Numbered from the stretch's first letter, positions 9,019 to 32,675 are shown. The stretch is DNA of 64,000 bases from Nageia nagi (GCA_050084985.1 JBITNC010000001.1:121148001-121212000), one strand, 5' to 3'. The notes: generated by a model not told the origin, from the letters alone. Translations and numbers: made by a program.

Positions 9019-9715
9019 GTAATCCACTATCTAAGTATGCCCCATTTTAAAAATGTACAGTCAATGAGTATCATTCTTGTATTTTCCTGATTTTGTTTCA
9101 ATGTAAGTATTGAATACAATTTATGTTCTTATTTTGAATCTTGACATTTGAGTTATATAATGAACAGTGCAACAAAGTTCAGGAGAATCCAGCGACAAGA
9201 TCATTTATAACTTGGAAGCAACCTACTTTACACTAGAATCACAACCTGGTAGAAAGGAGCAAAATAAATCAAAACAAAATCACATTCAATGTATTGGTAA
9301 ATTTCAAGCCACAAAAGGAGGAGGGGGGCTTATCAGAAGCCCTGTGATATGTTCTTATTCATTAAAAGATCTTTTTTTTTTGGAAAAGAAAAAAGATGGT
9401 TTTAATATTGTATGTGAAAATAGGTCAGTGGAACTCATACAGCAAGTTAGAATAGCTGATCAATAGTGCTAAACTCCAACAATCAGATTCAATATAAGAA
9501 TAGATCGAATTATAGGAATCACAAGAACAGAATAAGCATAGTGTCGAGCTCTGAAGGGAAAGCCGGTGAGTGTTTAGCCAAGTCAATCAGGACAATTACT
9601 CACCAAAATGCTCGTGTAGTTTGTAATATTCCAAAATATTACTGAGTATTTTTGGTGAGTTCTTCTAAAACGTGTTAGTCAGCGAGTTTCTCTTTGCTAA
9701 GTATTGGTTGCATTT

Positions 9716-10854
9716 TGTGATGTTCCCAAATCGAGAACTCTAGAAATAGCTCAAACAATTACTGAATAAAATCTCTAAATATTCCATAAATTCCGAATTA
9801 CTCAAATATGCCCAAATCATGCTCCATAAATTATTCTTATCACTCCAATAGGGCATAGAAATAACATCAATAAGGCATGCATCTGGCTTCTAGGTGTGAG
9901 ATCTCAAGCATTAATCAAATTAACTCAAATAACATCACATCCATGCATGTGTCCAATACCAAACAATGGATTTCAATTATACACAACAATAGATGACATA
10001 AAAATATATGTTGAATACCAAATGATCAAATGAGCCAAGAGAAATGTGTTACAAGCCTCAGAATTGCTAGATTTGTGCCCTAAGGTAAGACATGTCAACC
10101 AGGGAAACTGGATCTCACTTCAGGAACCCTCAAATGTACTCTAACTAGCCCTAGAAACTAAACATCAAGAGTAGGAAGCCCCCCTCAATAGAGCAGAAGG
10201 TGTACACAAGCTTATCAATGGTGGATCTCAACAATTGAAGTTAGATCCTTGATGGATCTTAGAAACAACAATAGTTAGAGTGAATCCTTGATGGATTCTA
10301 AGACTCCTCAGCAGTGATGGCAATCTTCGGGAAACCCTAAGGAATGTCGGGCCCTAGGTAGCAATCAAATGACCTTTGAGGAGTGCTAGGCCTTTCAAAG
10401 TAGCAGTCAGTTAAGGCTTGAGGAATGCTATACCTCAAGTACCTCCCTTGCATGCACAAGAGGAATGGAGAGAACTCACACCCACAAAATATCAATAATC
10501 AAGCATATCCTTCAAATGAGACTCTAATTTCTTATTGGGATTACAAAATTATTATTTACTCCCAAGAGGAGGTGTCTAGCCTATTTTAGACTCCTAGCTA
10601 ACTTAGAAATTATTGCTAGATCCTAGAAGAGGGACGTCCAACCTTAAATGCTCAATTAACACATTTGCAACCAAGATGAACGCTCATTCACATTGGGAAG
10701 CCATAGAATGACGTAATTACTTTTAATTGCATAAAAGAACTTAAAATCACAAAGAATGCCTCCTAGAGCTCCTAGAGGTGTATCCCACCTCATGAGGAAG
10801 AATAGCTGAGAGTGAAGCGCTCATGAAAGGGACCTTGAAAAATGAAACATTACA
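9716..10854. mobile_element. Solo LTR
   Basis: TGTGATGTTCC...GAAACATTACA; perfect TSD CATTT. Confidence 0.85.
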
Positions 10855-10924
10855 CATTTGAATCTATAAATTATGGTATCGAGACTTTGCATGTCTTAGT
10901 GAGACTATCAATTTCTGAGCCAAG

Positions 10925-12414
10925 TGATGAGTAAAATAATGGTATTCCAAATTCCACCAGGGCTGTCACTACCCTTCCCCTAGTGATCCTTTCACCTGTT
11001 ATCGTGAAAGGACCAGTTAGCTCGTAGAGCTGGTACTCCAACACTTAGGGCAGATTTAGTTTCCTCTCACTAGTTTTGGAAGACAATATGTGACTCTTTC
11101 ATTTAGTTAATCAATCCGGGCGGTGTTCAAGGCTATATGCTATTGAACTCTATTCTCTCAGCTGTATCTACTTCAAGTAAACATTGCAAAAAGCAAATTT
11201 GCAGAATGGAAAGTTGCAAAATTGAAAGTATAGGAATCTTAAATGCTGAAAGAAATATACACTTGAAATCATCACATTGAATGTAAACTCACACCTGAAT
11301 TAAAAGAACAGTAAAATAAAAGAGTCTTCTACCATTTGGAGTGGGCCCTTGCTCCTCTTGGTGGAAGACTTAGAAGAACTCAGAACTGGAAACTCTTAAC
11401 ATATCACTCTATTATTGTATGCAATTTGTCTTGCACAGAATGTGCTTGACAAATCTAATACAAAGTTTTATTCTCAACAGTCTACACACAATACTTCCTT
11501 AATCTTCTAACCCTCCCTATCGTCAACAATTGAGGTATAAATACCCTCAGTTGTTTAACAATAGGCTGGCCAAGAATAACAATAATCTGAACAATATTCT
11601 GTTATAGAAAATAGAATCACTTATTCTACCAACTAGCTAATGCTAAAATTAACATGCTAACAGTGCTCATGTCTTATCTAAGGAGAGCTGCAATCCCTTT
11701 AAAAAAGGGTGGCTCATCTCAACAAGTCAGCACTATCCTATTTACATCATAAGTAGTTTATTATGCCTAATTTGGAGTCAAACATACTCTATAAAACAAG
11801 AATCATATCTGACTATATATCTAATGTGTTGGAGCCATGCTCCTATAGACTATATTTGGAGTAGCTCACATCACGTAAATATCTGGATCATACAAGGCTG
11901 GAATAGAGCTGGCAATATAGTCAATAATGACGGTCAATTTCTCAAATTTGGGTCTGGAGCGGAAGCTCCGGACGAGTTTGGAGCGGGAGCTCCGGATGAG
12001 TCTGAAATAGAAGCTCCGAACGAGTCTGAAATAGAAGCTTCGGACGAGTTTGGAACAAAAGCTCCAGACAATATAACTCTGCTTTACCAAATGAAGCGTC
12101 CAATTGGTCCGAAGCGGAGTCCAGGACAATGTATACAAGTGAGAATCCATTCAGAATACTTCCTAACAATACTTGCAACTCATTCGAGTTATCAACCATC
12201 ATTCCATGGAGCAAAGAGAAGCATTTTGGTTCAAACAAACACACAAAATAGAATCAATATGCACAAAATACTAATATAAGGAAAGTATGCATTTAACCAT
12301 ATATTAAACAACTAAATAGTCCAACAGTTACAATTAATCCGTCCCATAATGTCCAAATATACAAAATGAACCATCGAATTGTGCCAAAAACTAGGTAATT
12401 ACTGAGACTCATCA
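10925..12414 (-). repeat. 3' LTR of the Athila-like element
   Basis: Direct repeat of 31242-32675; adjacent PPT. Confidence 0.95.
11956..12069. repeat. 24-bp minisatellite in the LTR (5 units; 3 units at 32264-32329)
   Basis: Units such as GGAGCGGAAGCTCCGGACGAGTTT and GAAATAGAAGCTCCGAACGAGTCT. Confidence 0.88.
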
Positions 12415-12581
12415 CTCCCCCCAGCTTAAGACATTGCTACTCCTGGAGCAATAAAGGAAAAAGATAGCTTCAATTAGAATCACTGGAACTGTCAACAACA
12501 GTAACAACTGGTGGAGCATGAACTAGATGAGCCAAATCATAAGGTCTGGTAGCGAGCTACAGTCTTTGTCAAGTCCGAATG

Positions 12582-12773
12582 TCAATTGTGCCCCTGAAGA
12601 TTGACAGAGTTTTCTTTTAATTCGGCTACAAACTGCCACACTAGCCAGAGCTCATAGCCGTGAAACTTGTTGAAAAATTGGAGCCATTGGGCGGTGGCAA
12701 ATATTTCTGACACCTTGGGATCCTTCCGAAGCTCTTCCGTCGAGCTGGGTTCTTCTCGGTGCTTTTGACCCAT
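12582..12773 (-). pseudogene. Truncated extra ORF downstream of integrase (Athila extra-ORF position)
   Basis: MGQKHREEP...WLQFFNKFHGYELWLVWQFV in element sense between pol and the PPT; family similarity from memory only. Confidence 0.4.
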
Positions 12774-12908
12774 TTCATTGACAACCAATGGTCTGCAAGT
12801 TTTTGCTGAATTTCGAGTGTGGCAAGGTGGCGAACAACACTTATGGCACATATGTTACTTGGACATACAGATTCGAATAATTTATAACAGTTAAACTACT
12901 AATTACCA

Positions 12909-13392
12909 GACGAGCCACCCCTTAGAGCGTGGCTACCGATGGCAACGCCCGACACCGACATAGACTACACGGTTCACAAGCTTGAGTACCGGACTTATGG
13001 GAATCACCCCGGCCAGGCATAACCACTCACAGCCCATCCCGCACGTCTAGCCGGCTCCGCCGTATCCGTCAAGTCCGTAGTTGCATACTGCTAGAGGCCT
13101 CGTGCCTCTAGAGCTGGTCCGACCCCTTGGAGCATCGGACCGGTTTGTCATAGTTACCAGAGTGCCTGGTGCTCACCGCCCAACCAACGACCTTCAAACG
13201 GGTATCACCCCTAAGGTCCCCCTGAGCTTTATTCGCCCATCCATGTCGCCCAGTCCAACCATAGGAACGGCCTCTCAACCTTGTCCGCCATGGTTCCTAA
13301 AGCACGACAGTTTGGGCCCGGAATGGATCCCCGTGTACTAGAGGTTACGCTCTACGTACACTCACCACCCCGGGAGAGGCGGCCCTCTCACA
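12909..13392 (-). repeat. LTR of the left arm
   Basis: Reverse complement of 23807-24290; PPT at 13393-13405. Confidence 0.8.
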
Positions 13393-13456
13393 TTCTCCCC
13401 CACTTAAAGGTGTTGACGACCTCGTCAACAATGCACACCGAGGGGAGGAATTGGTG

Positions 13457-16400
13457 CTAGTCACACCACCAATATTTCTCGTGGCCTTCAGCTAGGAACT
13501 CTTGGATTTTGTCCTCAAAGTTCCAAAGGCTTTCCGCTCTTTCCCACGTATCGTTCTCAATGGTTTCACCTTCCCAACCAACAAGGTATTCGGTTTTCTT
13601 AATCTTGCCAAAACCCCTTGTACGAACACCCTTGATTTCCTTCACTATCTTCTGCGGTCTGTCGATGATACCGGTAGGCGGGCGAGTGGGAACCATTCTC
13701 TCAGGATTTTCTGAATCTTCCACACATGGCCTCAACTGGCTGACATGAAAGACATCATGTATGTGCAGATGACTTGGTAGCTGGATCTTATACGCCACTT
13801 TGCCAATTCGCTTAATCACTCTGAACGGCCCCTCATATCTCCTCGAGAGGGACTTTGACGTTCCCGGTGCAGGCTTGAAGTGGTCTCCATCAATTCTCAA
13901 AAATACCAAGTCCCCAACCTTGAACTCCAACTCCCGTCTCCTCTGATCTGCATTTTTCCGCATCCTCTCCTGAGCCTGTAGTAGAAATGCTCGTGCGGCA
14001 TCTATTCTCTCCTTCCAATCCTCCAGGTACCGAGTTGCCGATGGGCAAGTGCTGAAGTATTCCGGTACCACTGTGTGGGGAGCGATTGGTTGCCTACCTG
14101 TGGCAAGTTCGAATGGAGTGAATTTACTTGAGGCCGACTTCTGGCTATTGTAACTGAATTGTGCAATGTCCAGGAGGTCGGGCCAATTTGTTTGGTCTGA
14201 TGTCACATAATGCCTCAAGTATTCTTCTAGGATCCCATTTACTCTCTCTGTCTGCCCATCTGTCTGTGGATGGTGACTTGTGGACAGAAACAGCTTTGTG
14301 CCCATTATCCTGAATAACGCTGACCAGAAGTTACTAGTGAATCGAGCATCCCTATCCGACACAATGTTCAGTGGTATCCCCCAATATTTCACAACATGCT
14401 TGAAGAAGTATTCGGCTGCCGTTGCCGCTTCGCATGGATACTTACACGGGATGAATGTGGCATACTTAGAGAATCTATCAACCACTACCATAATGCTAGT
14501 ATATCCTTGTACCTCCGGTAAGCTGGTGATAAAGTCCATGCTGACACTCACCCACGGTCTGATAGGTATTGGGAGAGGTTGAAGTAAACCTGCTGGCCGT
14601 TTTCTCTCACTCTTATCTTGTTGGCACAACAGGCAGCTTCTCACATAGCTTTCCACATCGTTGAACATGTTCAGCCAATAGTATCCTCTAGAGATCAATG
14701 CCATCATCCTATCTCTTCCTGGGTGCCCGGCCCAAGGCGAGTCATGACACTCCTTCATTATCTCATTTCTTAGGCCGTCCCACTTCGGCACATAGATCCT
14801 GTTGGCTCCATACAACAATAAACCCATACGGGTTCTGAACCTGGTCAACCGATTCACATTTGCAAATTTATCTGCTGAGGCTACCATGGCTCTGGCCTGC
14901 GGGTCTTTTCCCATCCCCTCTCTGATTCTCGAAACCAAATCCCCTGAAAGCTGTACTTGACCTGGTTGATTTGGCTGCTGATCCTCTTTGGCCAACTCCT
15001 CCTGGCCATTTGTCATCGCAGTGAGGGCACGGGGTGGTTTCTCCCCCACTTGAGCTTGGGCGAGCTCCTGCAAGCCCTCATTAGGATCCTTTAGTTGAGC
15101 CTTACGGCTCAAGGCATCCGTTGCCGCATTCTTCTTGCCTGGGTTGTATCTGAACTCGGCATCATATTCGGCCAAGAAGTTTGCCCACCGTGCCTTCTTG
15201 CCTGTTAGCTTGCTAGATGTCTTAAAATAAGTGTTGGAGATGTCCGTTTTGATCACAAACGGAGTGCCCAAAAGATAGTGTCTCCAAACACGTAAACAGT
15301 GTAAGACTGCCACCATCTCCTTGTCATGCGCGGGGTAGTTTCTCTCCGCGTCTTTCAATTTCCGCAATTCATAAGCGATGGGGTGTCCATCCTGGATCAA
15401 GACCCCACCGATGGCATAATCTGAGGCATCCGTATGCACTTCAAAAGACTTAGAAAAATCAGGCAAGGCTAACACCGGTGATGTTGTAAGTTTGCATTTC
15501 AATTCCTCAAATGCCTGCTGCCGACTTGCTGTCCAAAACCACCTTGTCTGTTTTCTGAGCAACTGAGTGAGGGGGGCTGCTATCTTCGAATATCCACACA
15601 CAAACTTCCTGTAATAGTTGGCTAAGCCCAAAAATTGTCTGAGCTGATGGACATCCTTCGGAGGCTCCCAATCTCGAATGGCATCCAATTTCTTCATCTC
15701 CGGCTTAATCTTTCCACCGCCGACGACATGTCACAGGAAGCTCACTTCAGTTTGTGCAAAGGCTCATTTTTCCTTTTTGACGTAAAGCTCGTTCTCCTTG
15801 AGCTTGTCAAACACCAATGCCAAATGAGTTATGATCCTCTAGGGACTTGCTATAAATCAAAATGTCGTCCAGATATACCAAGACAAACTTATCCAAATAA
15901 GGCCGGAACACATCGTTCATAAGTGTACAAAATGTCGCCGGGGCGTTGCACAAACCGAATGGCATAACCATAAAGTCGAAGGAGCCATATCTTGTCACAC
16001 AGGTTGTTTTTACTTCATCACCCTGTGCGATACGTACTTGGTAATAACCTTGCTTTAAATCAAGCTTCGAGAAGTACACGGCTTTACCCAATCGATCAAA
16101 ACAATCCTCAATGAGTGGGAGTGGGTACTTGTTTTTTATCGTAATTTTGTTAAGGGCCCGGTAGTCCACACACATCCGCAACGACCCGTCTTTCTTTTTC
16201 TGAAATAGCACAGGTGCCCCGTAAGGCGAGTGAGACGGTCTCAAATAACCGGCGGCCATTAACTCTTCCAGCTGCTTCTTTAACTCTGCCATTTCAGCCA
16301 CTGACAGTCTGTACGGTTTGATGGACGGCGGTTTGGCCCCCGGAGTCAACTCAATCTTATGATCGACCGTCCTCCTCGGTGGGAGTCGAGTTGGTAACTC

Positions 16401-18372
16401 CACCGGCATAACATCCCCATATCTCTCCAGTACTTCGTTGATCTCTCCGGGGACTGTTGTCTTCTCCACTTCCTGTTCCTCCCAACCTCCCAACATGGCT
16501 GCTAGAAATAGAGGTTCCCGTTTATTCCTAGAGGCTTTTCTAATGGACATGACAGAGAGGTTTTGGAGGCGACCACTAGACCTAGGCTCAACAAGGTCGA
16601 CCATGCACGAGTAGTCAGGATGCATAATGACCAGCTTCCCGATGTGGGGCATGGCCGCGGCATGGGCAGTATAGATGAAGGATTGACCTAGGACCAGGTC
16701 GAAGTTGAGACTAGGCACCACAAAGAGGATTGTGGTACCAAGCCACTTCCCTACTTGGAGAGACACTTTGGGAGTTCGGCGCAAACTGATTTCCTCTGGC
16801 CGATTAGCAACTTGCAAAGATTCATTGGACTTGTGCGTCTTAAGGCCCAAATCCTTACATAGGCGTTCAGATATATAATTGCTTGACGCACCGCCATCGA
16901 CAAGCGCCACGACAGGTCTACCATTAAGAGTGACGTCCACATAACTGAGAGGATAGTGTTAGGTTTCATCAATATGAGCCGGCTTACCCTCAATGGCTGC
17001 CAAAGCATTCAAAAGTCGAACACCAGGGGCACTTTGAGGGTTCGATGATGTTGAGGCAGTCGTTGTTAGAGCCAACGGTTGGGGAGGATGAGTCACATAG
17101 TATTGGACTGGTTGAGCTTGGGGAGTGGCTAGGTTCATGACATTTAGGCGATTTTGGTGAGGGCATTCTCTAGCAATATGACTGGTGCTATCACACCCGA
17201 AGCACCGCCGTCTGCCTTGTTGCTCATACTCAACCTGCTGCACCTTCTGTGACCGATTACTGTCCTCACCTTGGTGCCCTCTTTTGCCCTTTTTATTCTT
17301 GTCATGCTTGCCCTCTCCTTTCCCAAACCTTTCCTGCTTTCCCCTGTTATCTCTGTTGTCCCGACTGTCACCTGTCCAACCCTTCTTACTTTTCCGCTTA
17401 TCTCCCCAACCTTTCTTTTCTGAACTCACCCCTCTCTTCTCCTCCCTTTTATTGTCCTTTTTCAGCCCAGCCTCTCTATAATCGGTCAACTTTTCTGCCG
17501 CTTGTATTGCTTCGGTGAGCTTGTCGGTTTAGCTCAGCCTTGGCCCAAGGTCGAAGGCCTTTCATAAAGTAATGCAGTTTAACATGCTCTTGCAAGCCCG
17601 AAGTTGCCAATATGTATACTTGGAAGGCCTTGATATATTCTTTTATGGTTCCGGTATGCTGGAGGGCATCCAGCTTTTCCAAGATCTTTATATCTGCATT
17701 GGTGGGCTTGAATTGTTCTCTCAAGAGTTGTTGAAAGTTTTCCCAGGTCTTGCAAGGATCTTCCCCTGTCAATGACGTCGACCGAGTCCTCCACCAAAGT
17801 TTGGCACCACCTTCTAGCAAACCCACCACAATATTGATCTTTTTTCGGTCATCAACCCGAGGAAGCTGACTGAAATAGTGTCCCAAATCCCAAATCCATG
17901 GTTCCAACACCGTAGCTTCTCGTTCCCCACTGCACGCTGTTGGCATTTTCACCTTAATTCGTGCCTCGACTTTGTCTTGGCCTGCTGAGCCAGCTACAAG
18001 TTGTGTCAAAAGGGTCATTTTCTCGCTCATCTCGTGAATTACCCGTCTATACTCACCCACTTGAGTCTCCAGGTCAAAAACACGATTGCCCAGATCTATG
18101 GTCTCTCCACGCATGACCTCGTGCTCCTCAGTAAGGGCAGCATTTTCTGCTTGGAGTCGCACGATCATATCACCATCCCCTACTCTTTCACCACGAGGTT
18201 TTCTTTTATTTTGATCCCTCAGTTCCTTGAACTGTTCCAAATATTTATCCACTGTTATCTGATGTATGACCCGATAAGGAGTTTCCTCCTCGTTTTGAAC
18301 ACCCGGTTCCTGCGGTGCCGTTTCCTGAGGCATCTCTTCCAACTCTATCTCTTCCACTGGCTGAGCAGACAT
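13457..18372 (-). pseudogene. Chromovirus (Galadriel-like) gag-pol, left arm
   Basis: gag AKLWWR, CCHC knuckle CFGCDSTSHIAREC, protease ALVDGGA, RT YLDD, RNase H HTDASD, integrase CHDSPWAGHPG/DRFSK, chromodomain EYLVGWEG...TWE; stops and frameshifts. Confidence 0.94.
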
Positions 18373-18823
18373 CTTGAACAACCCAGCGCGGTCACTAGCA
18401 CAATTCGACACAGGTACACACACACGGACACACTTTACCAAACTTCACGCTTCAAACCTACAACACGAGACATGTAGGTTAGAATACCACACAAGGCGCC
18501 ACGAATTGCTAAGGCAAACAAGGTTGTGCATGAGCAAAAATAAACACACAGCACGAAGCATGCACAAACACACGGTAAGCATCACATCAGTCGGGTCGGG
18601 AAAATGTGATGTGATGCTTACCGTGTGTTTGTGCATGCTTCGTGCTGTGTGTTTATTTTTGCTCATGCACAACCTTGTTTGCCTTAGCAATTCGTGGCGC
18701 CTTGTGTGGTATTCTAACCTACATGTCTCGTGTTGTAGGTTTGAAGCGTGAAGTTTGGTAAAGTGTGTCCGTGTGTGTGTACCTGTGTCGAATTGTGCTA
18801 GTGACTGCGCTGGGTTGTTCAAG

Positions 18824-21800
18824 ATGTCTGCTCAGCCAGTGGAAGAGATAGAGTTGGAAGAGATGCCTCAGGAAACGGCACCGCAGGAACCGGGTGTTCA
18901 AAACGAGGAGGAGGAAACTCCTTATCGGGTCATACATCAGATAACAGTGGATAAATATTTGGAACAGTTCAAGGAACTGAGGGATCAAAATAAAAGAAAA
19001 CCTCGTGGTGAAAGAGTAGGGGATGGTGATATGATCGTGCGACTCCAAGCAGAAAATGCTGCCCTTACTGAGGAGCACGAGGTCATGCGTGGAGAGACCA
19101 TAGATCTGGGCAATCGTGTTTTTGACCTGGAGACTCAAGTGGGTGAGTATAGACGGGTCATTCACGAGATGAGCGAGAAAATGACCCTTTTGACACAACT
19201 TGTAGCTGGCTCAGCAGGCCAAGACAAAGTCGAGGCACGAATTAAGGTGAAAATGCCAACAGCGTGCAGTGGGGAACGGAAGCTACGGTGTTGGAAACAT
19301 GGATTTGGGATTTGGGACACTATTTCAGTCAGCTTCCTCGGGTTGATGACCGAAAAAAGATCAATATTGTGGTGGGTTTGCTAGAAGGTGGTGCCAAACT
19401 TTGGTGGAGGACTCGGTCGACGTCATTGACAGGGGAAGATCCCTGCAAGACCTGGGAAAACTTTCAACAACTCTTGAGAGAACAATTCAAGCCCACCAAT
19501 GCAGATATAAAGATCTTGGAAAAGCTGGATGCCCTCCAGCATACCGGAACCATAAAAGAATATATCAAGGCCTTCCAAGTATACATATTGGCAACTTCGG
19601 GCTTGCAAGAGCATGTTAAACTGCATTACTTTATGAAAGGCCTTCAACCTTGGGCCAAGGCTGAGCTAAACCGACAAGCTCACCGAAGCAATACAAGCGG
19701 CAGAAAAGTTGACCGATTATAGAGAGGCTGGGCTGAAAAAGGACAATAAAAGGGAGGAGAAGAGAGGGGTGAGTTCAGAAAAGAAAGGTTGGGGAGATAA
19801 GCAGAAAAGTAAGAAGGGTTGGACAGGTGACAGTCGGGACAACAGAGATAACAGGGGAAAGCAGGAAAGGTTTGGGAAAGGAGAGGGCAAGCATGACAGG
19901 AATAAAAAGGGCAAAAGAGGGCACCAAGGTGAGGACAGTAATCTGTCACAGAAGGTGCAGCGGGTTGAGTATGAGCAGCAAGGCAGATGGCGGTGCTTCG
20001 GGTGTGATAGCACTAGTCATATTGCTAGAGAATGCCCTCACCAAAATCGCCTAAATGTCATGAACCTAGCCACTCCCCAAGCTCAACCAGTCCAATACTA
20101 TGTGACTCATCCTCCCCAACCGTTGGCTCTAACAACGACTGCCTCAACATCATCGAACCCTCAAAGTGCCCCTGGTGTTCGACTTTTGAATGCTTTGGCA
20201 GCCATTGAGGGTAAGCCGGCTCATATTGATGAAAGCTAACACTATCCTCTCAGTTATGTGGATGTCACTCTTAATGGTAGACCTGTCGTGGCGCTTGTCG
20301 ATGGCGGTGCGTCAAGCAATTATATATCTGAACGCCTATGTAAGGATTTGGGCCTTAAGACGCACAAGTCCAATGAATCTTTGCAAGTTGCTAACCGGCC
20401 AGAGGAAATCAGTTTGCGCCGAACTCCCAAAGTGTCTCTCCAAGTAGGGAAGTGGCTTGGTACCACAATCCTCTTTGTGGTGCCTAGTCTCAACTTCGAC
20501 CTGGTCCTAGGTCAATCCTTCATCTATACTGCCCATGCCGCGGCCATGCCCCACATCGGGAAGCTGGTCATTATGCATCCTGACTACTCGTGCATGGTCG
20601 ACCTTGTTGAGCCTAGGTCTAGTGGTCGCCTCCAAAACCTCTCTGTCATGTCCATTAGAAAAGCCTCTAGGAATAAACGGGAACCTCTATTTCTAGCAGC
20701 CATGTTGGGAGGTTGGGAGGAACAGGAAGTGGAGAAGACAACAGTCCCCGGAGAGATCAACGAAGTACTGGAGAGATATGGGGATGTTATGCCGGTGGAG
20801 TTACCAACTCGACTCCCACCGAGGAGGACGGTCGATCATAAGATTGAGTTGACTCCGGGGGCCAAACCGCCATCCATCAAACCGTACAGACTGTCAGTGG
20901 CTGAAATGGCAGAGTTAAAGAAGCAGCTGGAAGAGTTAATGGCCGCCGGTTATTTGAGACCGTCTCACTCGCCTTACGGGGCACCTGTGCTATTTCAGAA
21001 AAAGAAAGACGGGTCGTTGCGGATGTGTGTGGACTACCGGGCCCTTAACAAAATTACGATAAAAAACAAGTACCCACTCCCACTCATTGAGGATTGTTTT
21101 GATCGATTGGGTAAAGCCGTGTACTTCTCGAAGCTTGATTTAAAGCAAGGTTATTACCAAGTACGTATCGCACAGGGTGATGAAGAGAAAACAACCTGTG
21201 TGATAAGATATGGCTCCTTCGACTTTATGGTTATGCCATTCGGTTTGTGCAACGCCCCGGCGACATTTTGTACACTTATGAACGATGTGTTCCGGCCTTA
21301 TTTGGATAAGTTTGTCTTGGTATATCTGGACGACATTTTGATTTATAGCAAGTCCCTAGAGGATCATAAGACTCATTTGGCATTGGTGTTTGACAAGCTC
21401 AAGGAGAACGAGCTTTACGTCAAAAAGGAAAAATGTGCCTTTGCACAAACTGAAGTGAGCTTCCTGTGACATGTCGTCGGCGGTGGAAAGATTAAGCCGG
21501 AGATGAAGAAATTGGATGCCATTCGAGATTGGGAGCCTCCGAAGGATGTCCATCAGCTCAGACAATTTTTGGGCTTAGCCAACTATTACAGGAAGTTTGT
21601 GTGTGGATATTCGAAGATAGCAGCCCCCCTCACTCAGTTGCTCAGAAAACAGACAAGGTGGTTTTGGACAGCAAGTCGGCAGCAGGCATTTGAGGAATTG
21701 AAATGCAAACTTACAACATCACCGGTGTTAGCCTTGCCTGATTTTTCTAAGTCTTTTGAAGTGCATACGGATGCCTCAGATTATGCCATCGGTGGGGTCT

Positions 21801-23742
21801 TGATCCAGGATGGACACCCCATCGCTTATGAATCGCGGAAATTGAAAGACGCGGAGAGAAACTACCCCGCGCATGACAAGGAGATGGTGGCAGTCTTACA
21901 CTGTTTACGTGTTTGGAGACACTATCTTTTGGGCACTCCGTTTGTGATCAAAACGGACAACATCTCCAACACTTATTTTAAGACATCTAGCAAGCTAACA
22001 GGCAAGAAGGCACGGTGGGCAGACTTCTTGGCCGAATATGATGCCGAGTTCAGATACAACCCAGGCAAGAAGAATGCGGCAGCGGATGCCTTGAGCCGTA
22101 AGGCTCAACTAAAGGATCCTAATGAGGGCTTGCAGGAGCTCGCCCAAGCTCAAGTGGGGGAGAAACCACCCCGTGCCCTCACTGCGATGACAAATGGCCA
22201 GGAGGAGTTGGCCAAAGAGGATCAGCAGCCAAATCAACCAGGTCAAGTACAGCTTTCAGGGGATTTGGTTTCGAGAATCAGAGAGGGGATGGAAAAAGAC
22301 CCGCAGGCCAGAGCCATGGTAGCCTCAGCAGATAAATTTGCAAATGTGAATCGGTTGACCAGGTTCAGAACCCGTATGGGTTTATTGTTGTATGGAGCCA
22401 ACAGGATCTATGTGCCGAAGTGGGACGGCCTAAGAAATGAGATAATGAAGGAGTGTCACGACTCGCCTTGGGCCGGACACCCAGGAAGAGATAGGATGAT
22501 GGCGTTGATCTCTAGAGGATACTATTGGCCGAACATGTTCAAGGATGTGGAAAGCTATGTGAGAAGCTGCCTGTTGTGCCAACAAGATAAGAGTGAGAGA
22601 AAACGGCCAGCAGGTTTACTTCAACCTCTCCCAATACCTGTCAGACCGTGGGTGAGTGTCAGCATGGACTTTATCACCAGCTTACCGGAGGTACAAGGAT
22701 ATACTAGCATTATGGTAGTGGTTGATAGATTTTCTAAGTATGCCACATTCATCCCGTGTAAGTATCCATGCGAAGCGGCAACGGCAACCGAATACTTCTT
22801 CAAGCATGTTGTGAAATATTGGGGGATACCATTGAACATTGTGTCGGATAGGGATGCTCGATTCACTAGTAACTTCTGGTCAGCGTTATTCAGGATAATT
22901 GGCACAAAGCTGTTTCTGTCCACAAGTCACCATCCACAGACAGATGGGCAAACAGAGAGAGTAAACGGGATCCTAGAGGAATACTTGAGGCATTATGTGA
23001 CATCAGACCAAACAAATTGGCCCGACCTCCTGGACATTGCACAATTCAGTTACAATAGCCAGAATTCGGCCTCAAGTAAATTCACTCCATTCGAACTTGG
23101 CACGGGTAGGCAACCAATCGCTCCCCACACAGTGGTACCGGAATACTTCAGCACTTGCCCATCGGCAACTCGGTACCTGGAGGATTGGAAGGAGAGAATA
23201 GATGCCGCACGAGCATTTCTACGGCTCAGGAGAGAATGCGGAAAAATGCAGATCAGAGGAGACGGGAGTTGGAGTTCAAGGTTGGGGACTTCGTATTTTT
23301 GAGAATTGATGGAGACCACTTCAAGCCTGCACCGGGAACATCAAAGTCCCTCACGAGGAGATATGAGGGGCCGTTCAGAGTGATTAAGCGAATTGGCAAA
23401 GTGGCGTATAAGATCCAGTTACCAAGTCATCTGCACATACATGATGTTTTTCATGTTAGCCAGTTGAGGCCATGTGTGGAAGATTCGGAAAATCCTGAGA
23501 GAATGGTTCCCACTCGCCCGCCTACCGGTATCATCGACAGACCGCAGAAGATAGTGAAGGAAATCAAGGGTGTTCGTACAAGGGGTTTCGGCAAGATTAA
23601 GAAAACCGAATACCTTGTTGGTTGGGAAGGTGAAACCATTGAGAACGATACGTGGGAAAGAGCGGAAAGCCTTTGGAACTTTGAGGACAAAATCCAAGAG
23701 TTCCTAGCTGAAGGCCATGAGAAATATTGGTGGCGTGACTAG
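18824..23742 (+). pseudogene. Chromovirus (Galadriel-like) gag-pol, right arm
   Basis: Same domains as the left arm; stops at 20237 and 21467, frameshifts at ~19279, ~19677 and ~23221. Confidence 0.94.
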
Positions 23743-23806
23743 CACCAATTCCTCCTTTTGGTGTGCATTGTTGACGAGGTCGTCAACACCTTTAAGTGGG
23801 GGAGAA

Positions 23807-24290
23807 TGTGAGAGGGCCGCCTCTCCCGGGGTGGTGAGTGTACGTAGAGCGCAACCTTTAGTACACGGGGATCCATTCCGGGCCCAGACTGTCGTGCTTT
23901 AGGAACCATGACGGACAAGGTTGAGAGTCCGTTCCTATGGTTGGACTGGGCGACACGGATGGGCGAATAAAGCTCAGGGGTACCTTAGGGGTGATACCCG
24001 TTTGAAGGTCGTTGGTTGGGCGGTGAGCACTAGGCACTTTGGTAACTATGACAAACCGGTTCGATGCTCCAAGGGGTCGGACTAGCTCTAGAGGCACAAG
24101 GCCTCGAGCAGTATGCAACTACGGACTTGACGGATACGGCGGAGCCGGCTAGACGTGCGGGACGGGCCGTGAGTGGATATGCCTGGCAGGGGTGATTCCC
24201 ATAAGTCCGGTACCCAGGCTTGTGAACCGTGTAGTCTATGTCGGTGCCGGGCGTTACCATCGGTAGCCACGCTCTAAGGGGTGGCTCGTC
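23807..24290 (+). repeat. LTR of the right arm (no terminal CA; followed by TGGTA)
   Basis: Begins TGTGAG directly after PPT AAGTGGGGGAGAA; end inferred from the imperfect terminal inverted repeat. Confidence 0.8.
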
Positions 24291-24981
24291 TGGTAGTGAA
24301 ATGACATACCATTTAATGGCGGATGGTGGCAGAGCGCAAAGATGTACGTCTGAAGCTGCCGATCTCTTCCTTTGAATCATATGTCACATGAGAGACACTT
24401 GACACGTGTTAGGCATTGGTTTGTGTGAAGGGAAAAGGTGGCACTTCGTCTTATTCATGGCATGGAAAAGTGTGACAGCTAGCTCTTGAATCCTGTGCCA
24501 TGGAGTGGTGGGTGTGAACATGTGGATATGTGGACGTACCTTGTTTGCCAAGCTATCATATGGTTTGGTTGTTATGTTGCACTCTCGACGGGTGATGTTA
24601 CCTTGAAAATTGGGCCATCACATTATAATTGAAATCTCGTTTGGCGCATTGTACGAAGGTCATGGTGAGGAAATTGACAGCTATTGACGTGTCCGAAGAA
24701 ACGTTGTTCGAAGCTACAGTCACGACACCTATGTAAGATTCATGCCAACTCTTGAAACTATAATAGTTCCTGCTGAAATGAGAATCCTACACGTGACCTT
24801 ATGTTATTATTATTAAAATATATATATATATAATTTTTTTCTCTTTTTTTTTTTAAATTGACAAAAGCTCCTTGTGTTTCCAGTGTTGGTGGTTTTCACC
24901 CGCAAGTGCCAGTTTCTTGGTTTTCGCTTACCGATTGCCACGTTCATTGGAATCACTTATTTATAAGACTGATCAATGGAA

Positions 24982-27900
24982 TTATTTAACGATACTCGAG
25001 GAGGAAGAGGCTTCCCCGGATGTATTAAGATCTGCTATCCTTATCTGCTGCGTGAATTGCTCCAATACTGGTACAGTATACGGGCGAAGGTGATGTCCAT
25101 TAACCAGGAGAATCCTCCGAGAGTCGTCAATCGGTTGCAACTGGATTGAACCATTAGGGAATATTTGAAGAATCTTATATGGCCCCAACCATTGTGTCTG
25201 GAGCTTCCCTATGAAATCATTATAGCGGGAATCAAATAATAAAGCCCATTCTCCTACCCGAAATTGGTTCTATTTCAGATTTTTGTCATGCCAGCTCATT
25301 TAGCTGTAGTAGTCTATTTTTCAGTATTTCTATAATGTCCATCCCAGCCTCTAGGGTTGTTCTCAGTGTCTAGAGCTCAAATTGTATTGGCAATAAAGGC
25401 TTCTTACAAAATACTAACTCATATGGAGTAAACCCAATGGTGGATTTCCACATAGTATTGTATGCCCAGATTGCTGCAGGAAGCCTGGATACCCAATCCC
25501 TTCTATGTGAAGCTACTGTCTTGGTCAATATATTTTCCAGTTCTCTGTTAGTAACTTCAACTTGTCCATTCGTCTGTGGATGATAAGGCGAAGCCTTCTT
25601 ATGTCGGATTTGGTACTGGTTCACAAAATGTTGAATTGTTTTTGACATGAACTGTGGACCTTGATTAGAAACCAGAAACCGAAGAGCTCCAAATCTTTGC
25701 ATAATGTTATTATACAGAAAATCTACCACATATTCTTTCTTGGCATGTGCCAAGGCTACTACTTCTACCCACTTAGTGGCATAATCAGTACAGACTAGTA
25801 TGTGTTTCTTACCTTGAGATGGAGGATTAATCGGCCCGACAAAGTCGATACTCCATTGTTCAAATGGTTCAAGCATCCATTGCGGTTGTAATGGCATTTG
25901 AGTAGTAGCAGTAGGCCTACCCATTCGTTGACACTTATCACATTGCCTCACATATTTTCTAATGTCTTTGTGCATAGAAGGCCAAAAATAACCAGCTCCT
26001 AGGACTTTATGGATGGTTCGTTTATCAGAATAATGACCTCCTGAAGGCTCATCATGGCATGCATGGATGATATCAAATACCTCGTTTGTCTGAAGACACC
26101 TTCGGAGTGCATGATCAGGTCCATATTTAAACAACAACCCATCCAACCACTTATATGATGCACTTTGTCTAATCAATTGTTTCCTCTGATTTGGAGACAA
26201 ATGTGGAGGAAGTTTCCCAGTGGCTAAATAATTGGCAATATTTGCAAACCAGGGAGACTGTGCAGATATTGCAAAAAGTAAATTCATCTGGAAAGGTATC
26301 TTCCACCATCTCATCTTCCCGGACAATATTCAATCTGGATAAGAAATCTGCGACCTCATTTGCCTTTCCAGGCTTATCAATGATAGTCACATTAAACTCC
26401 TGTAATAGTAGCAACCATCTCACAACTCTTCCACTTACCACAGGTTTGTTCATGATGGCAGCATGGTCAGTATGAACAAATACTTGGTATCTTGTGATAT
26501 GGAGTCTAAATTTATTGATGGCATACGTTACTGCTAGGAATTCTTTCTCTGCAGTAGTATAATTTCTTTCAGCTCCCACCAAATTTTTACTTATGTAATA
26601 AATAGCATATGGGGACTTACTTGGTTCTTCTTGTCTTAGGATTGCTCCAATAGTATAATTTGAGGCATCCATATGAATGTAGAATGGTAGTTCCCAATTG
26701 GGACCTCTCAACACATGAGTTGTGGTGAGTTTTTCCTTCATAATCTGAAAAGCTTCTTCACAATCAGCTGTCCATTCAAATTCATTGTCCTTATGCAGCA
26801 GGGCAAATAATGGGGTTGCTGTTTAACTAATTTTTTTTTTAAATCTTCTGTAGTATCCGTCATGTCCCAAGAAGTTCCGGACATTTGCTTGAGTCTCAAG
26901 TTGAGGGAGTTGCTTGATGACTTCTATTTTCTTGGGATCCACCTTAATCCCTTGGGCTGAAATATGATGGCCCAAAACTATTCCCTCCTGTACAAGCATG
27001 AAGCATTTTTCATGGCTTAAGGATAGATTATGCACTTTACATCTCACCAAAACTTTTTCTAAGTTCCTCAATGCATCTCCAAAAGTGTTGCCATACACCG
27101 TGAAGTCATCCATGTACACTTCAACGCAATCATTAGTCAAATATGAAAAGATTGCTAGTACAACTCTTTGGAAAGTTGTTGGTGCATTGCACAAGTCAAA
27201 TGGAAGAACTTTATAAGCATATGTACCCCATGCACAAGTAAATGTGGTCTTGCCTTGATTTTCCTCTGCAATTTGTATTTGGTTATAGCCACTAAATCCA
27301 TCTAGGAAGGAGAAATATTGCTTACCAGACAAAATGTCTAACACTTGGTCAATGAAAGGTAATGGGAAGTGGTTCTTGAATGTAGCTTTATTGAGAGCTT
27401 TGTAGTCAACACAAACCCTCCATTTGCCGTTTTTCTTTGACACAATAACCAATGGTGAGACCCATTGACTATCTGAGATAGGATAGATGAATTTAGCTTT
27501 CAATAGCCTTTCAATTTCAGTCTTAACAACTTCTTTAAGTGTAGGATTTACCCATCTGGGAGGCTGCTGGACTGGTCTGGTTTCATCCGTATATATACGA
27601 TGGGTACAAATCTCCGGATGAATACCTTTCATGTCTGAATATTCCCAGGTGAAAGCCTCAGTATGGGCTCTCAAGACATCAAAAAGCTTCTTCTCTTGTT
27701 CATCTGTCAACCAACTGCTGATATTAAGAGTCTTTCCTGGTAATACTTCAACAGTCTTGATCCCAGGTTTGGTCAGATTACTTTGTTCTGGAAGTTGAAC
27801 TAGGGAATTCAAAAGACAAGAGTGTGGAAATAAAAAATGGAATACTCTTGTTCTTTCCCTGAAAGTATCCCCTTTTGGAACAATGTGAGTAAGGGGGCAT

Positions 27901-30900
27901 TTGAGCATTGCCAAAAATGTTGCCTGCTCTTCTGATGGAACATTGAAAATAATGCTTTGTAGTGGGTTAACCACTGTATTTCCCTTCTCTTCATCACTGC
28001 CCTCTGATTCTTCTTTGTGTGGCTCCGAACAGTGGTACTATATTTGTTCCAGATTAGGATCTTCTTCTATCTCTTCAACATGGTCCTTGATGGTAATGGT
28101 TGCTAATGTTGCAAAAGTCTCATGTGCATCTGTGTTAGACTCATCAACCCATATCTGGTTGTGATATTCCAACGTTGGTTGGGCAGGTGGGTACAAAGAA
28201 AGTGTCTTTGTGTTTAGGCCATTAGAAATGGTCATATCTCCAGACCTATAGTTGATGTATGCAACTGCAGTGGCTAACCAAGGTCTTCCCAATATGATTG
28301 GATATCTAGAAGGCTGTACTCTTGTCTTTAGAAGCAAAAAATCTACTAGATAGCTCCAGGAATCTACTGTTATTTGGACATCTTCCACGATTCCTTCTGG
28401 CTTGGCCACTATTCGGTTTGCCATCTGCAACATAGTTGAAGTGGGCTGTATATTTGACAGGAATAGTTTTTGAGACATCCAAAATCATGCCATTTATTGC
28501 TACTCCCAAGTCAACCAAAACATTGGGCTCTTTAGTATTCCTATGAAAATTGTAATAATAGGATTACCTGGATTGCCATACTAAGGAATTACCAAATTTC
28601 CAGCCAAAAGATCAGCTACTTTATCATCTACTTTAACAGTCTTTGGATAGACCTTTCTTTTTGCTCATTTTTGGATGCATAGTTCTTTAACCAACTTGTT
28701 TAGCTTAGGAACTTGTTTGATTGCTTGTAATATAGGTATCAAGATATTCAATTTCCTTATCTCTTGCAGCAGTTCTAATTCAATTTCTTGGGGTTTTTCA
28801 ATCAGCTTTTTTGGATACGGAGTAACTTCTGTCCGGAGCTCCTTGTTGTTTGCAGGTAGAATTGTTTCTGTTGGTGGCTCCTGACTGTCTTCCATGTGTT
28901 CTTTTGGAGATTCATCTGAGCTGTCCACCTCTACTTCTGTGATGATAGGAGGTACAGGATTTGGCAATTTTTTACCAGATCGAAGCTCAATTTCATTGCA
29001 TTGGATAGCATTTACTGATGCAGTGTCTCCTTGATCAATTTGATAGGCAGGTGCTGGAGCTTGCTTGTTATTATTTGGGTTAGGAACAGGTTGGGCTAGA
29101 AGAGCAGGTTGCTTTGGAGGTTGTTGCTGCTGATTCATTTGCTGTTGTTGATTAAATGGTGGTGGTAGCCAACCTTGCCTTCGCTGTCCTTGTACTGGAT
29201 GATTACTCCAGTTCTGCCGATTTTGTCCTCCATATTGCTGCCATTGTGGATTCCATTGTGAAGGATCCCATCCATAACCTTGCCAATCTTGAGTTACCAT
29301 CCATGGGGAATATGGTGGCATGCTCCACCAATTCTGATTCGTTGGTCTAGAAAAATAGGGATTTGGATTCCCTTGGAAATTACTATTTTCCCTAGGCCCC
29401 ATTGCTCCCATATAGTTCATGTTCATGTTTGGAGCTGCTACAGACATTTGTGCTATCCTTAGATAGTCACAATCATCTGTTGGATGGTCATTATTGCATA
29501 GGTTGCATATATGGTTAGTGTTCAGAGGACATTCATCTAGAACATGTTTCTTTCGGCACCTAGGACAGTACCTTGTTGAAAACTCATCTGTGGTCTGCTT
29601 TTTCGAATTTGTAATTTGAAGAGAATCCTGGATCTCCTTTAGTTTATTTGCTGTTTCCTTCAGTTGACTTAATTCAAACAGAACATCAGTCCCGAAGTTT
29701 GCAAATTCCTCTTTAATTTCACTTGCCAATCCAGTCTCTACCCGACTATCATTCTGAAACCTGTCACTTCTCTTATGTGTTCTGGTCCTTGAATAGTTTC
29801 TGTAGAGTTCCACAATTTCATCAAGAGCTGACTTATTGACATTACCCTTTCCCATCATATTTAGGACTTCCAATGTGGAATCCAGAAGCCCTCTTAGAAA
29901 GATGGTTTTGGAGAATTCGGGATCCATGGTCGTGCCAACTCTTTTTTGAACAAATAAGAATCTGTCAAGGTAATCTTCAAGGCTTTCTGATGCTGCTTGA
30001 TTGAGTCAAAACAGTTCATCTTTCCTATCTTTGACTCGACAGTATTCCTGGTATTTTTCCAGAAAAGCTTTCTCCATTTCATCCCAAGTGGAGATGGAAT
30101 CTGGAGGAAGTCCCATGAACCACCTCATTGCATTGTCTTTTAGAGTGGATGGAAAAAGTTTTAATTTTTGTTCATCCATCTCATAGTCATATGTTCTGCA
30201 CAGTATCTTGAATTCAAATAGAAACTGATCTAGATCCTCACTAGAAAGACCTCGAAAGGTAGGTAAGACTGACGGTGAAATGTTCTTCATAGGAGCCTGA
30301 GTCCCTGCGGCGAGCCTTATGGGATAAGTGAATGTTTGAGTAGAGGGATTAGTACCTCCCACTCCAGAACCACCACTTCCTCTAGACATATTGACAAGTG
30401 GATTAGTATATATCTTCTTTATTTGCTCAAACTCTAGTAATCTCACCTTGCTGTAATAAATATGGAAGATTATCTTGGCTGTTTCTTTTTCTGCTTCAGA
30501 ATCACTTTCACTGGAAAGAGGATGAATATGAGTAACGGGTAATGGTAAAGATGCATTGGAGAAATGGATGGATGGATGAAAAGTAGCAATGACTGTATCC
30601 GGAGCAGGCTCAATTGTCTCTGTTTGGAGAGTTAAGTCTACAAACCGAATAGGAAATGGAGGGGATTTATCAGTAAATCTCCTATATTGCTTAGGTGGAT
30701 CTGAGAATCTCAGAAATGGTGGTGATGATGGACTAATGAAAGTTGTCTCTTCTGCAGCGACTGGGTGCTCAGATTTTGGAGTATGGTCTGCCTCCTCTTC
30801 CAAAATTGTTGGATCAATTTCTTCCAATTCTTCCACAAGTCTAGGCTTTGGCCTAGTTTCTTCTAGTTGCTCCACCTGATGTTCTTCGACAACTATACCA

Positions 30901-31055
30901 CTTCCCTTTTCTTCCACAACCTTTTCTGAACTCAACTTTTTAGTTTTGGGGGGTTTTAGTTGTGTTTTCTGGACTGATTTTCCTACAGCTACTTTCTTAC
31001 TACTGTCTCCTTTACTATTGACAAATCTTCCTTTATCATCTCTTGATCTATTCAT
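24982..31055 (-). pseudogene. Frameshifted gag-pol of the Athila-like element
   Basis: gag (KLKLFPSTLKDNAMRWF), protease (IILGRPWL), RT (CVDYKALN, YMDD), RNase H (DAS), integrase (CHD..GGH, CDKCQ, YHPQTNGQ, GPY) in gypsy order. Confidence 0.93.
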
Positions 31056-31241
31056 ACATTCTCAAGCAAATAAGGACACCAATCTATCACAACTTAGACA
31101 ACAGTTCACTGCAACTCATTCTGTGAATAATTGAGAAACCAGGATGGCACCCGATTTCAAACTGGCTTTGTCAAGTCCCCTATCCTTAAGAAGTACAGGG
31201 ATAGTTCAATTAACACCGTTCCCCGACAATGATGCCAAAAA

Positions 31242-32675
31242 TGATGAGTAAAATAATGGTATTCCAAATTCCACCAAGGCTGTCACTACCCTTCCCCTAG
31301 TGATCCTTTCACCTGTTATCGTGAAGGGACAAGTTAGCTCGTACAACTGCTACTCCACTCAAGGTAGATTTACTTTCCTCTCACTAGTCTTGGAAGACAA
31401 TATTTAACTCCATTTAGTTAATCAATCCGAGCGGTGTTCAAGGCTATATGCTAGTGAACTCTATTCTCTCAGTTGTATCTACTTCAAGTAACATTGTAGA
31501 AAGCAAATATGCAGAATGGAAAGTTGCAGAATTGAAAGTATAGGAATCTTAAATGCTGAAAGAAATATACACTTGAAATCATCACATTGAATGTAAACTC
31601 ACACTTGAATTAAAAGAACAATAAAATAAAAGAGTCTTCTACCATTTGGAGTGGGCCTTTGCTCCTCTTGGTGGAAGACTTAGAAGAACTCAAAACTAGA
31701 AACTCTTAACATATCACTCTATTATTGCATGCAATTTGTCTTGCACAGAATGTGCTTGACAAATCTAATACAAAGTTTTATTCTCAACAGTCTACACACA
31801 ATACTTCCTTAATCTTCTAACCCTCCCTACCGTCAACAATTGAGGTATAAATACCCTTAGTTGTTTAACAATAGGTTGGCCAAGAATAACAATAATCTGA
31901 ACAATATTCTGTTATAGAAAATAGAATCACTTATTCTACCAGCTAGCTAATGCTAAAATTAACATGCTAACAGTGCTCATGTCTTATCTAAGGAGAGCTG
32001 CAATCCCTTTAAAAAAGGGTGGCTCATCTCAATGAGCCAGCACTATCCTATTTACATCATAAGTAGTTTATTATGCCTAATTTGGAGTCAAACATACTCT
32101 ATAAAACAAGAATCATATCTGACTATATCTAATGTGTTGGAGCCATGCTCCTATAGACTATATTTGGAGTAGCTCACATCACGTAAATATCTGGATCATA
32201 CAAGGTTGGAATAGAGCTGGCAATATAGTCAATAATGACGGTCAATTTCTCAAATTTGGGTCTGGAGCGGGAGCTCCGGACGAGTCTGAAATAGAAGCTC
32301 CGAACGAGTGTGGAACAGAAGTTTTAGACAATATAACTCTGCTTTACCAAATGAGGCGTCCAATGTTTCCGGAGCGAAGCTCTAGAAAATGTATACAAGT
32401 GCAGAATCTATTCAGAATACTTCCTAACAATACTTGCAACTCATCCGAGTTATCAACCATCATTCCGTGGAGCAAAGAGAAGCATTTTGGTTCAAACAAA
32501 CACACAAAATAGAATCAGTATGCACAAAATACTAATATAAGGAAAGTATGCATTTAACCATATATGAAGCAACTAAATAGTCCAACAGTTACAATTAATC
32601 CGTCCCATAATGCCCAAATATACAAAATGAACCATCAAACTGTGCCAAAAACCAGGTAATTACTGAGACTCATCA
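31242..32675 (-). repeat. 5' LTR of the Athila-like element
   Basis: Direct repeat of 10925-12414; adjacent PBS TGGCATCATTGTCGGGGA on the - strand. Confidence 0.95.

Follow-up and report, generated by a model that had tools for sequence, protein, structure and literature searches.

What becomes of a long terminal repeat (LTR) retrotransposon when its sequence is doubled back upon itself inside a transcribed host gene, and could the resulting transcript act against the retrotransposon's own family? The question is raised by a 64,000-nucleotide stretch of the Nageia nagi genome (GCA_050084985.1, JBITNC010000001.1:121148001-121212000; hereafter, the window), in which the original prediction had placed a hairpin-forming palindrome at 12904..24295, inside an intron of a TerC gene, as a candidate source of small interfering RNAs (siRNAs) directed against the family. 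The palindrome is indeed present at that position with arms of 5.7 kb each, it lies between plus-strand TerC exons, and it covers the LTR, gag, reverse transcriptase (RT), integrase and chromodomain, as had been claimed; Pfam matches add the protease and RNase H. The intron, however, is ~44.3 kb long and consists mostly of transposable elements, and within it the palindrome is nested in another, outer gypsy element. Taken as a whole, we consider it rather probable that the locus is a genuine nested palindrome, produced by what was probably a single event of fold-back copying followed by end-joining, and that it would yield double-stranded RNA (dsRNA), likely diced, only by read-through from outside.

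The 11.4-kb near-perfect palindrome is a real feature of the locus and very probably not an artefact of assembly. A repeat search resolved it into six collinear inverted-repeat blocks, running from 12904-13976/23223-24295 inward to 18284-18589/18607-18912, and blastn aligned one arm with the other from end to end in a single alignment (5686 versus 5689 nt, 98.455% identity, 75 mismatches, 5 gap openings). The differences occupy 88 alignment columns, made up of 58 transitions, 17 transversions and 13 indel columns. Since the two arms matched only each other in the 64-kb window at E<1e-5, the similarity can be attributed neither to chance nor to low complexity. With the pairing of the arms imposed on plus-strand RNA, 5606 Watson-Crick and 32 G-U pairs were counted against 43 mismatches, the longest perfect run being 476 bp, and the energy of the hairpin was evaluated as -11766 kcal/mol; minus-strand RNA treated in the same way gave almost equal energy and pairs. 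A search of 8000-33000 against Rfam returned zero matches at the gathering score.

The two copies are arranged head to head, with gag adjoining the centre and the chromodomain directed outward, and they occupy opposite strands, minus for the left copy and plus for the right. In both arms the Pfam domains follow the gypsy order, namely PF03732/PF19259 (gag), PF13975 (protease), PF00078 (RT), PF17917/PF17919 (RNase H), PF17921/PF00665 (integrase) and PF00385 (chromodomain), and this ordered series from gag to integrase with a C-terminal chromodomain identifies each arm as a Ty3/gypsy chromovirus (Table 1). Neither arm is a complete element: in place of two direct LTRs, a primer-binding site (PBS) and a polypurine tract (PPT), each has one LTR and a purine tract. 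The gag-pol frame is likewise interrupted, the open reading frame (ORF) pieces of at least 150 aa numbering four in the left arm and six in the right.

The extent of the LTR was read from contigs of public sequencing runs, which also bear on much of what follows. Nineteen such runs are listed, none of them recorded as RNA; nine hold part of the stretch and none holds half of its words, and contigs were placed from four runs on 8300-18650 and from four on 18480-24700. Two contigs of run X1 begin to fit the window at 23807 and are unlike the sequence before it (agreement 0.69). Because these contigs, from other copies of the family, fit exactly from that point onward, 23807-24295 can be recognised as LTR. 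In the window, no second copy of the LTR was found near the centre, and the leader upstream of 18590 is similarly absent; with one LTR per arm and the leader gone, each arm is a 5'-truncated derivative without a 5' LTR. As both LTRs of the palindrome face outward, their own promoters cannot transcribe the hairpin, and a hairpin RNA driven by these promoters was rejected for this reason.

When the 757-aa ORF encoding RNase H, integrase and chromodomain was used in a protein search, the best relatives were 60-68% identical. No protein relative exceeds 68% identity, so this chromovirus family is not represented among them and we attach no clade name to it. Metagenome scans for natural family copies, made with a 24-nt word from the leader and a 20-nt word from the LTR end, gave 0 hits each. 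The family is multi-copy and, in a run that holds spliced RNA (X3), contigs are 95-99% like the arms; targets for silencing may therefore exist.

Of the new results, the structure of the junctions is the firmest, and it suggests that the palindrome arose by fold-back in one step, with no part played by integrase. Within the outer element the palindrome occupies an internal position, between the integrase region and the 3' LTR, where it is flanked by CTAAT and GTGAA, the arms ending ...TGGTA. The integrase signature of TG..CA ends and a target-site duplication (TSD) of 4-6 bp is lacking here, whereas in the same DNA the outer element, 2 kb off, has TG..CA ends and a perfect CCAAG TSD. Four contigs represent the site without the palindrome, two from X3 among those placed on 8300-18650 and one each from X3 and X1 among those on 18480-24700. 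They read ...ACTAATTACC, then TAAATAATGA or TAAGTAATG, and resume the window at 24297 or 24296. Between the flanks they carry 9-10 nt that the window does not have, which indicates that ~9-10 nt of target were replaced. These contigs are palindrome-free copies of the outer family or an empty allele, and they speak for the palindrome as a discrete insertion. The lack of a TSD, the loss of some 9-10 nt of target and the presence of TACC in both flank and arm mark the junctions as non-integrase, and the palindrome was likely joined by end-joining instead. Insertion of an inverted dimer by integrase was rejected, the TSD being absent and target bases lost.

The centre of the palindrome is equally informative. 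Three contigs of run X2 traverse the spacer and the right arm and have other sequence before 18589 (agreement 0.97). Since they continue the spacer into the right arm, the spacer is in ordinary copies the natural upstream neighbour of that arm, which makes the left arm the mirrored one. The turn itself consists of a 17-nt loop with no more than 1 nt of homology, and both arms stop at the same position of the element, within 0-4 nt.

As the origin of this arrangement we favour, with a confidence slightly below even, self-primed (snap-back) cDNA synthesis on a 5'-broken RNA, the product being captured at a break by end-joining. One copy of the element would have terminated in the leader that separates the LTR from gag, at 18589/18590; the 3' end of this copy would have snapped back with 1 nt of homology at most, leaving the 17-nt loop, and would have been extended along its own strand as far as the LTR end. 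The most economical template would be a linear cDNA made from a 5'-broken RNA, with its second strand self-primed by RT. Self-priming of reverse transcriptase at 3' hairpins is established. A linear extrachromosomal template must run out at the end of the element, which explains the stop shared by both arms, while a chromosomal template offers no reason to stop there; this is the ground on which a cDNA origin is preferred. The hairpin DNA would finally have been captured at a break in the outer element through end-joining, with TACC as microhomology and a loss of 9-10 nt of the target.

Ranked second for the origin is template switching within the chromosome. Here an already integrated copy would have undergone a break or a stalled fork in its leader, and fold-back or template switching, of the type known as microhomology-mediated break-induced replication (MMBIR) or fork stalling and template switching (FoSTeS), would have copied 5.7 kb of the opposite strand before switching into the left flank, with deletion of the 5' LTR. 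Break repair is known to generate fold-back inverted duplications whose spacers are short, and the colinearity of the spacer with the right arm, the homology of at most 1 nt at the turn, the TACC microhomology at the left junction and the loss of both 5' LTR and PBS would all be accommodated. Such a mechanism nevertheless demands that the copied arm stop within 0-4 nt of the original element end, a coincidence over 5.7 kb; moreover, the right junction has neither a TSD nor a terminal CA, so that the right arm does not resemble an integrase product either. We regard this course of events as rather unlikely.

Whichever way it arose, the consequences of the palindrome depend on the gene around it. 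A PF03741 match at about 8775-9020, in a read-through frame with X at stops, scored 20.2 bits (E 5.5e-4), below the cut-off of 27.8, and a 43-aa ORF from this region finds 38 TerC proteins, of which the best named come from Ginkgo, Araucaria, Taxus and Cryptomeria, with others from lycophytes, bryophytes and angiosperms. Eight of the 38 TERC proteins, used in tblastn, gave ordered plus-strand hits at 8449-8502, 8729-8794, 8931-9020, ~53376-53435, 56476-56535 and 56685-56798, with identities of up to 93%. Domain and colinear exons together assign the gene, which encodes a chloroplast membrane protein, to the plant TERC family. Outside the palindrome there are 431 ORFs of 45 aa or more, and a Pfam scan of 430 of them (all but the one at 63858-63998) yielded domains of transposable elements (TEs) only and no match to TerC, the gene having been missed because its exons are short. 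An exon upstream of 8449 is seen in an mRNA contig and is absent from the window, so that the preceding intron must exceed 8.4 kb.

Evidence for transcription comes from run X3, whose label "RNA?" is a guess. One of its contigs, at a depth of 52.5, has GT..AG joints at 8502>8735 and 8791>8940, from which the presence of spliced TerC RNA follows. Behind 9020 the contig carries a further 255 letters, and the first 30 of these match the exon at 53363 save for one extra T. By joining the exon ending at ...9018 to that at 53363, it shows that the homologous intron is transcribed and removed in the organism concerned. Run X2, a DNA run of the same sample, supplied a 154-nt contig at 8714-8867 with zero differences from the window, and the species must thus be the same or a very close one. 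X3 also covers intron positions 9173-10331 at a depth of ~2-3, with contigs at 9173-9589 (417 nt, no differences), 9854-10040 and 10085-10331, and these could represent pre-mRNA or an early-ending isoform. A predicted 404-aa TerC protein, P0001, encoded by a 1433-nt public contig, reads from the exon end at 9018 into intron-like sequence. Together, the X3 intron contigs and this protein hint at a TerC isoform that ends early or retains intron sequence, on the upstream side of the palindrome. Among the listed contigs there is no RNA contig assignable to the arms or near flanks of this locus, those of X3 that lie on the arms all carrying other letters. Cover by X3 is nil at 16950-18650 and 18480-20351 and, in the unique flanks, 0.34 at 12452-12797 and 0 at 24512-24700, and X16 has nothing on 18480-24700; such blanks carry no weight.

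Several points count against the reading set out above. The palindrome rests on the assembly, in that none of the listed public contigs bridges its centre or either of its outer junctions, and the organism supplying the spliced X3 mRNA may lack it. The contigs taken to represent the empty site may be outer-family paralogues and not allelic (one has, for example, a 1-nt gap at 24312), making the size of the target deletion approximate. A microhomology of 4 nt can be due to chance, the arm end is without the usual CA, and the arms may not end at a true cDNA end. That a DNA ending in a hairpin was converted into a complete palindrome within the chromosome is, furthermore, a step that we infer. 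Finally, the TerC frame is not intact through the last exons. For CACTTTATACC of the mRNA contig the window has CACTTATACC, and in the exon at 53363-53420 a T-run near 53376 has thereby lost 1 nt, with TT for the TTT of the X3 mRNA; the shifted frame meets a TAG in the next exon (56476-56533). An error of assembly, a null allele or a second copy of the gene could each account for this deletion, which, if real, makes it uncertain that the TerC copy in the window is a working, transcribed gene.

Two transcripts are candidates for driving the hairpin from outside: TerC pre-mRNA on the plus strand, and RNA of the outer element starting from its 5' LTR (31242-32675) on the minus strand. Both arms would likewise be included in the minus transcript of the outer element, so that a driver other than TerC is possible. 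Read-through from outside, and only this, would produce a 5.7-kb dsRNA that is likely to be diced. The RNA would fold once the second arm had been made, becoming a substrate for Dicer-like enzymes, and the siRNAs would match the LTR, gag, RT, integrase and chromodomain of a multi-copy family. They would be a by-product of read-through from TerC or the outer element, and any effect in trans would add to the supply from dispersed copies. Some output of siRNAs in carriers seems to us an evenly balanced expectation, and the palindrome probably has no selected function.

A more ambitious proposal is that of a locus resembling Mu killer, in which TerC read-through would give the 5.7-kb hairpin, dicing independent of RNA-dependent RNA polymerase (RDR) would release 21-24-nt siRNAs, and the family would be silenced in trans in TerC-expressing tissue. 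The structural preconditions of this idea, as put forward in the original prediction, do hold, inverted arms extending from LTR to chromodomain being present between TerC exons and on the TerC strand. The duplication thus lies inside a transcribed host gene in the orientation of that gene, the homologous intron is spanned by spliced TerC mRNA, pairing along the stem is nearly perfect, and the 95-99% contigs of a multi-copy family in the RNA-holding run mean that targets may exist. Mu killer itself provides a precedent (PMC3440606, in the portion available), and hairpins of LTR elements are discussed as a possible trigger of silencing in the accessible part of another report (PMC11624286). Against this stand the want of any RNA contig assigned to the arms, the fact that trans-silencing needs genetics, the many dispersed family copies that could supply siRNAs anyway, and the 1-nt deletion in the TerC exon of the window relative to the mRNA. 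Cutting of the nascent pre-mRNA ~30 kb before the 3' splice site would, besides, cost TerC mRNA, which would argue against efficient dicing if the gene is a working one. Transgenes for hairpin RNA (hpRNA), again according to the part of the source available, become methylated and transcriptionally self-silenced (PMC9263138). The analogy with Mu killer is a reasonable one, but we find such a role doubtful. The boldest version, that an LTR retrotransposon made its own killer when a snap-back hairpin cDNA was taken up through end-joining into a transcribed intron of a gymnosperm-like giant genome and became a heritable, RDR-independent source of siRNAs against the family it came from, driven by an essential thylakoid gene or by the older host element, would be a long shot.

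The arms themselves record something of the history of the palindrome. Their divergence of 1.3% overall is patchy, with 51 of the 75 substitutions falling in the outer third (binomial p = 1.5e-9), an excess which persists among non-CG changes; the pattern looks like arm-to-arm gene conversion of some tracts. CG positions, which account for 444 of 5686 sites (7.8%), hold 23 of the 75 substitutions, and CHG positions a further 19. Since transitions at CG and CHG positions are in excess, the arms would seem to have decayed as methylated DNA, and on this mutation pattern the arm DNA has probably been methylated as a decaying repeat. Compared with contigs of other copies, eight changes are private to the left arm and six to the right, counting only the differences listed in read tables. 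The conifer substitution rate is about 2.2e-9 per site per year and, if this applies, an age of roughly 3-6 million years would follow for the palindrome. The outer LTRs, recovered as a 1.5-kb direct repeat (10922-12415, 31239-32676) that is 92% identical including gaps, differ by substitution at 62 of 1437 aligned sites; with this divergence of 4.3% the outer element predates the palindrome, as it must for the one to be nested in the other.

The same differences between the arms bear on whether the palindrome could be a product of assembly, either from a fold-back chimeric long read or from a misjoin of haplotypes or of two family copies. It is true that no independent contig among those listed bridges the centre, and that the 1-nt homopolymer difference in the exon at 53363 is a possible assembly error. 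A fold-back read, however, would give identical arms or random indels, whereas the 75 substitutions found here are biased towards transitions and CG/CHG positions, each arm having private changes of its own, and a fold-back artefact was rejected on this biological substitution pattern; the spacer, too, is element sequence and not adapter. A haplotype flip would mirror the flanks, but these represent adjacent stretches of the outer element, which other contigs show directly joined. Not being mirror images, they exclude a misassembly of that kind, and an artefactual origin is in our judgement very improbable. Least credible of all are two independent head-to-head insertions of one family, trimmed and homogenised afterwards, for although LTR retrotransposons nest and cluster and the window has at least five other LTR-element bodies, both copies would have to be truncated at exactly the same internal position, TSDs are absent, the 5' LTR is missing from both, and at 98.5% the arms are far more alike than most contigs of other copies (95-99%).

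Table 1. Coordinates of the palindrome, of the outer element in which it is nested and of the TerC gene, in positions of the window.
Feature	Position	Strand	Description
Left arm	12904..18589	-	5'-truncated Ty3/gypsy chromovirus; LTR outermost, gag at centre; putative fold-back copy
Spacer	18590..18606	+	17 nt, GTCGGGTCGGGAAAATG; would be the hairpin loop if transcribed; natural element sequence colinear with right arm
Right arm	18607..24295	+	same chromovirus: gag, protease, RT, RNase H, integrase, chromodomain, PPT, LTR; putative template copy
Left-arm Pfam domains	gag 17476-18444; protease and RT 15807-16958; RNase H, integrase and chromodomain 13457-15730	-	ORF pieces
Left-arm LTR (mirror)	12904-13392	-	points outward, as the right-arm LTR does
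Right-arm LTR	23807..24295	+	at least 489 nt; starts TGTGAG directly after purine tract 23794-23806, itself after the chromodomain stop
Left junction	12900..12907		TACC (12904-12907) fits both flank and arm (microhomology); without TSD
Right junction	24292..24300		without TSD, without terminal CA
Arm substitution divergence	12904-14910		2.6%
Arm substitution divergence	14911-16800		0.4%
Arm substitution divergence	16801-17400		1.8%
Arm substitution divergence	17401-18589		0.4%
Outer Ty3/gypsy element	10925..32675	-	LTRs 10925-12414 and 31242-32675; TG..CA ends; TSD CCAAG at 10920-10924 / 32676-32680
Outer-element Pfam domains	gag 30009-31061; RT 26826-28037; RNase H 26172-26822; integrase 25373-26329	-	
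TerC upstream exons	8449-8502, 8735-8791, 8940-9018 (about)	+	tblastn 86-93% identity
TerC giant intron	9019..53362	+	~44.3 kb; contains the outer gypsy element with the palindrome, and copia-type elements
TerC last three exons	53363-53420, 56476-56533, 56704-56801	+	stop included

Without the palindrome the outer element, a complete one, would measure about 10.4 kb, its LTRs being 1.44-1.49 kb long. Its family is very abundant in the DNA runs examined, those of other organisms included. One outer LTR has a 24-nt tandem unit at 11952-12068, seen as four overlapping 45-nt copies at 24-nt spacing that are 73-100% alike, and this tandem falls within a 208-aa ORF (11653-12279) with no Pfam match. 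Elsewhere in the window, copia-type bodies (RVT_2, Pol_BBD, SH3_retrovirus, gag_pre-integrase) occupy 1712-7000, 33652-40078, 43813-46953 and 59065-63681, that at 33652-40078 having LTR-like direct repeats 94% and 89% alike. A GC-rich block at 48269-50695 (48% GC) has 175-nt direct repeats, 93% identical and 2252 nt apart, together with plus-strand ORFs at 48434-49105, 49178-50005 and 50009-50557 that lack Pfam matches; it may be a small non-autonomous LTR element. A 198-nt unit is present in tandem duplicate at 41958-42353 with 90% identity.

The locus is a structural curiosity and belongs to a familiar class of inverted repeats. Mu killer is said to be a derivative of a DNA transposon (MuDR) lying beside a promoter, and its siRNAs and heritable silencing in trans have reportedly been proven genetically. 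It is described, in the part of the source available, as a partial inverted duplication from which read-through out of a flanking gene is believed to produce a hairpin RNA of ~4 kb (PMC3440606). The two loci have in common an inverted TE duplication open to host read-through of both arms and a predicted hairpin of kilobase scale that needs no RDR. They differ in that the present duplication is of an LTR retrotransposon, is nested in a further TE far inside a 44-kb intron, and is known from its structure and the expression of the host gene; among the defining features of a Mu killer-type locus, the inverted TE duplication is the sole one found here.

Comparison may be made with other inverted repeats as well. 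In Penelope-like elements, which are target-primed and have neither LTR nor integrase, an inverted copy is the usual outcome of insertion; we know of no such regular inverted outcome for LTR elements. The head-to-head insertions of Penelope-like elements resemble the present case as retroelement palindromes in introns, formed at insertion and with predicted RNA hairpins, as far as the available text describes them (PMC3846280). LIRBase, in the accessible account, records 6,619,473 long inverted repeats (LIRs) in 424 genomes, transcribable to hpRNA and processed to siRNAs (PMC8728187). The palindrome shares with these a long stem, a short loop and the possibility of acting as an hpRNA and siRNA source, while its 5.7-kb arms, 98.5% identity and 17-nt loop would place it with the larger and younger of such repeats. 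Head-to-head, tail-to-tail or nested insertions of LTR elements have been hypothesised, in what is available of a study of Arabidopsis EVD, to form hairpins that start silencing (PMC11624286). What is a possibility there differs from the locus described here, whose hairpin spans nearly the whole element and would stem from one event instead of two insertions. For hpRNA transgenes, the accessible section of one report indicates that inverted-repeat DNA attracts methylation (PMC9263138). Our palindrome is similarly a near-perfect inverted repeat under read-through, and methylation fits its CG/CHG-biased decay; the transgenes, by contrast, are driven by a strong promoter of their own and form stems some hundreds of bp long, and methylation is deduced here from the mutation pattern only. 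A literature search on LTR-retrotransposon palindromes, self-primed cDNA insertions and intronic TE hairpins found no near-full-length, TSD-less palindrome of an LTR element at the level of titles and abstracts, a negative of little weight.

How the silencing of newly active LTR retrotransposons begins is debated, hairpins from rearranged copies being one proposed trigger. The Nageia locus offers a clean natural example of such a hairpin, in that it comprises almost the whole element, is young, has near-perfect pairing and lies within reach of two possible promoters. It also poses a question about the host gene. TERC is essential in Arabidopsis, and one may ask how an essential gene tolerates a 5.7-kb dsRNA-forming segment in its pre-mRNA. 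Should TSD-less palindromes that end at LTR termini turn up repeatedly in giant genomes, reverse transcription would have to be seen as generating them regularly on the side, and with them a steady supply of hairpins directed against TEs.

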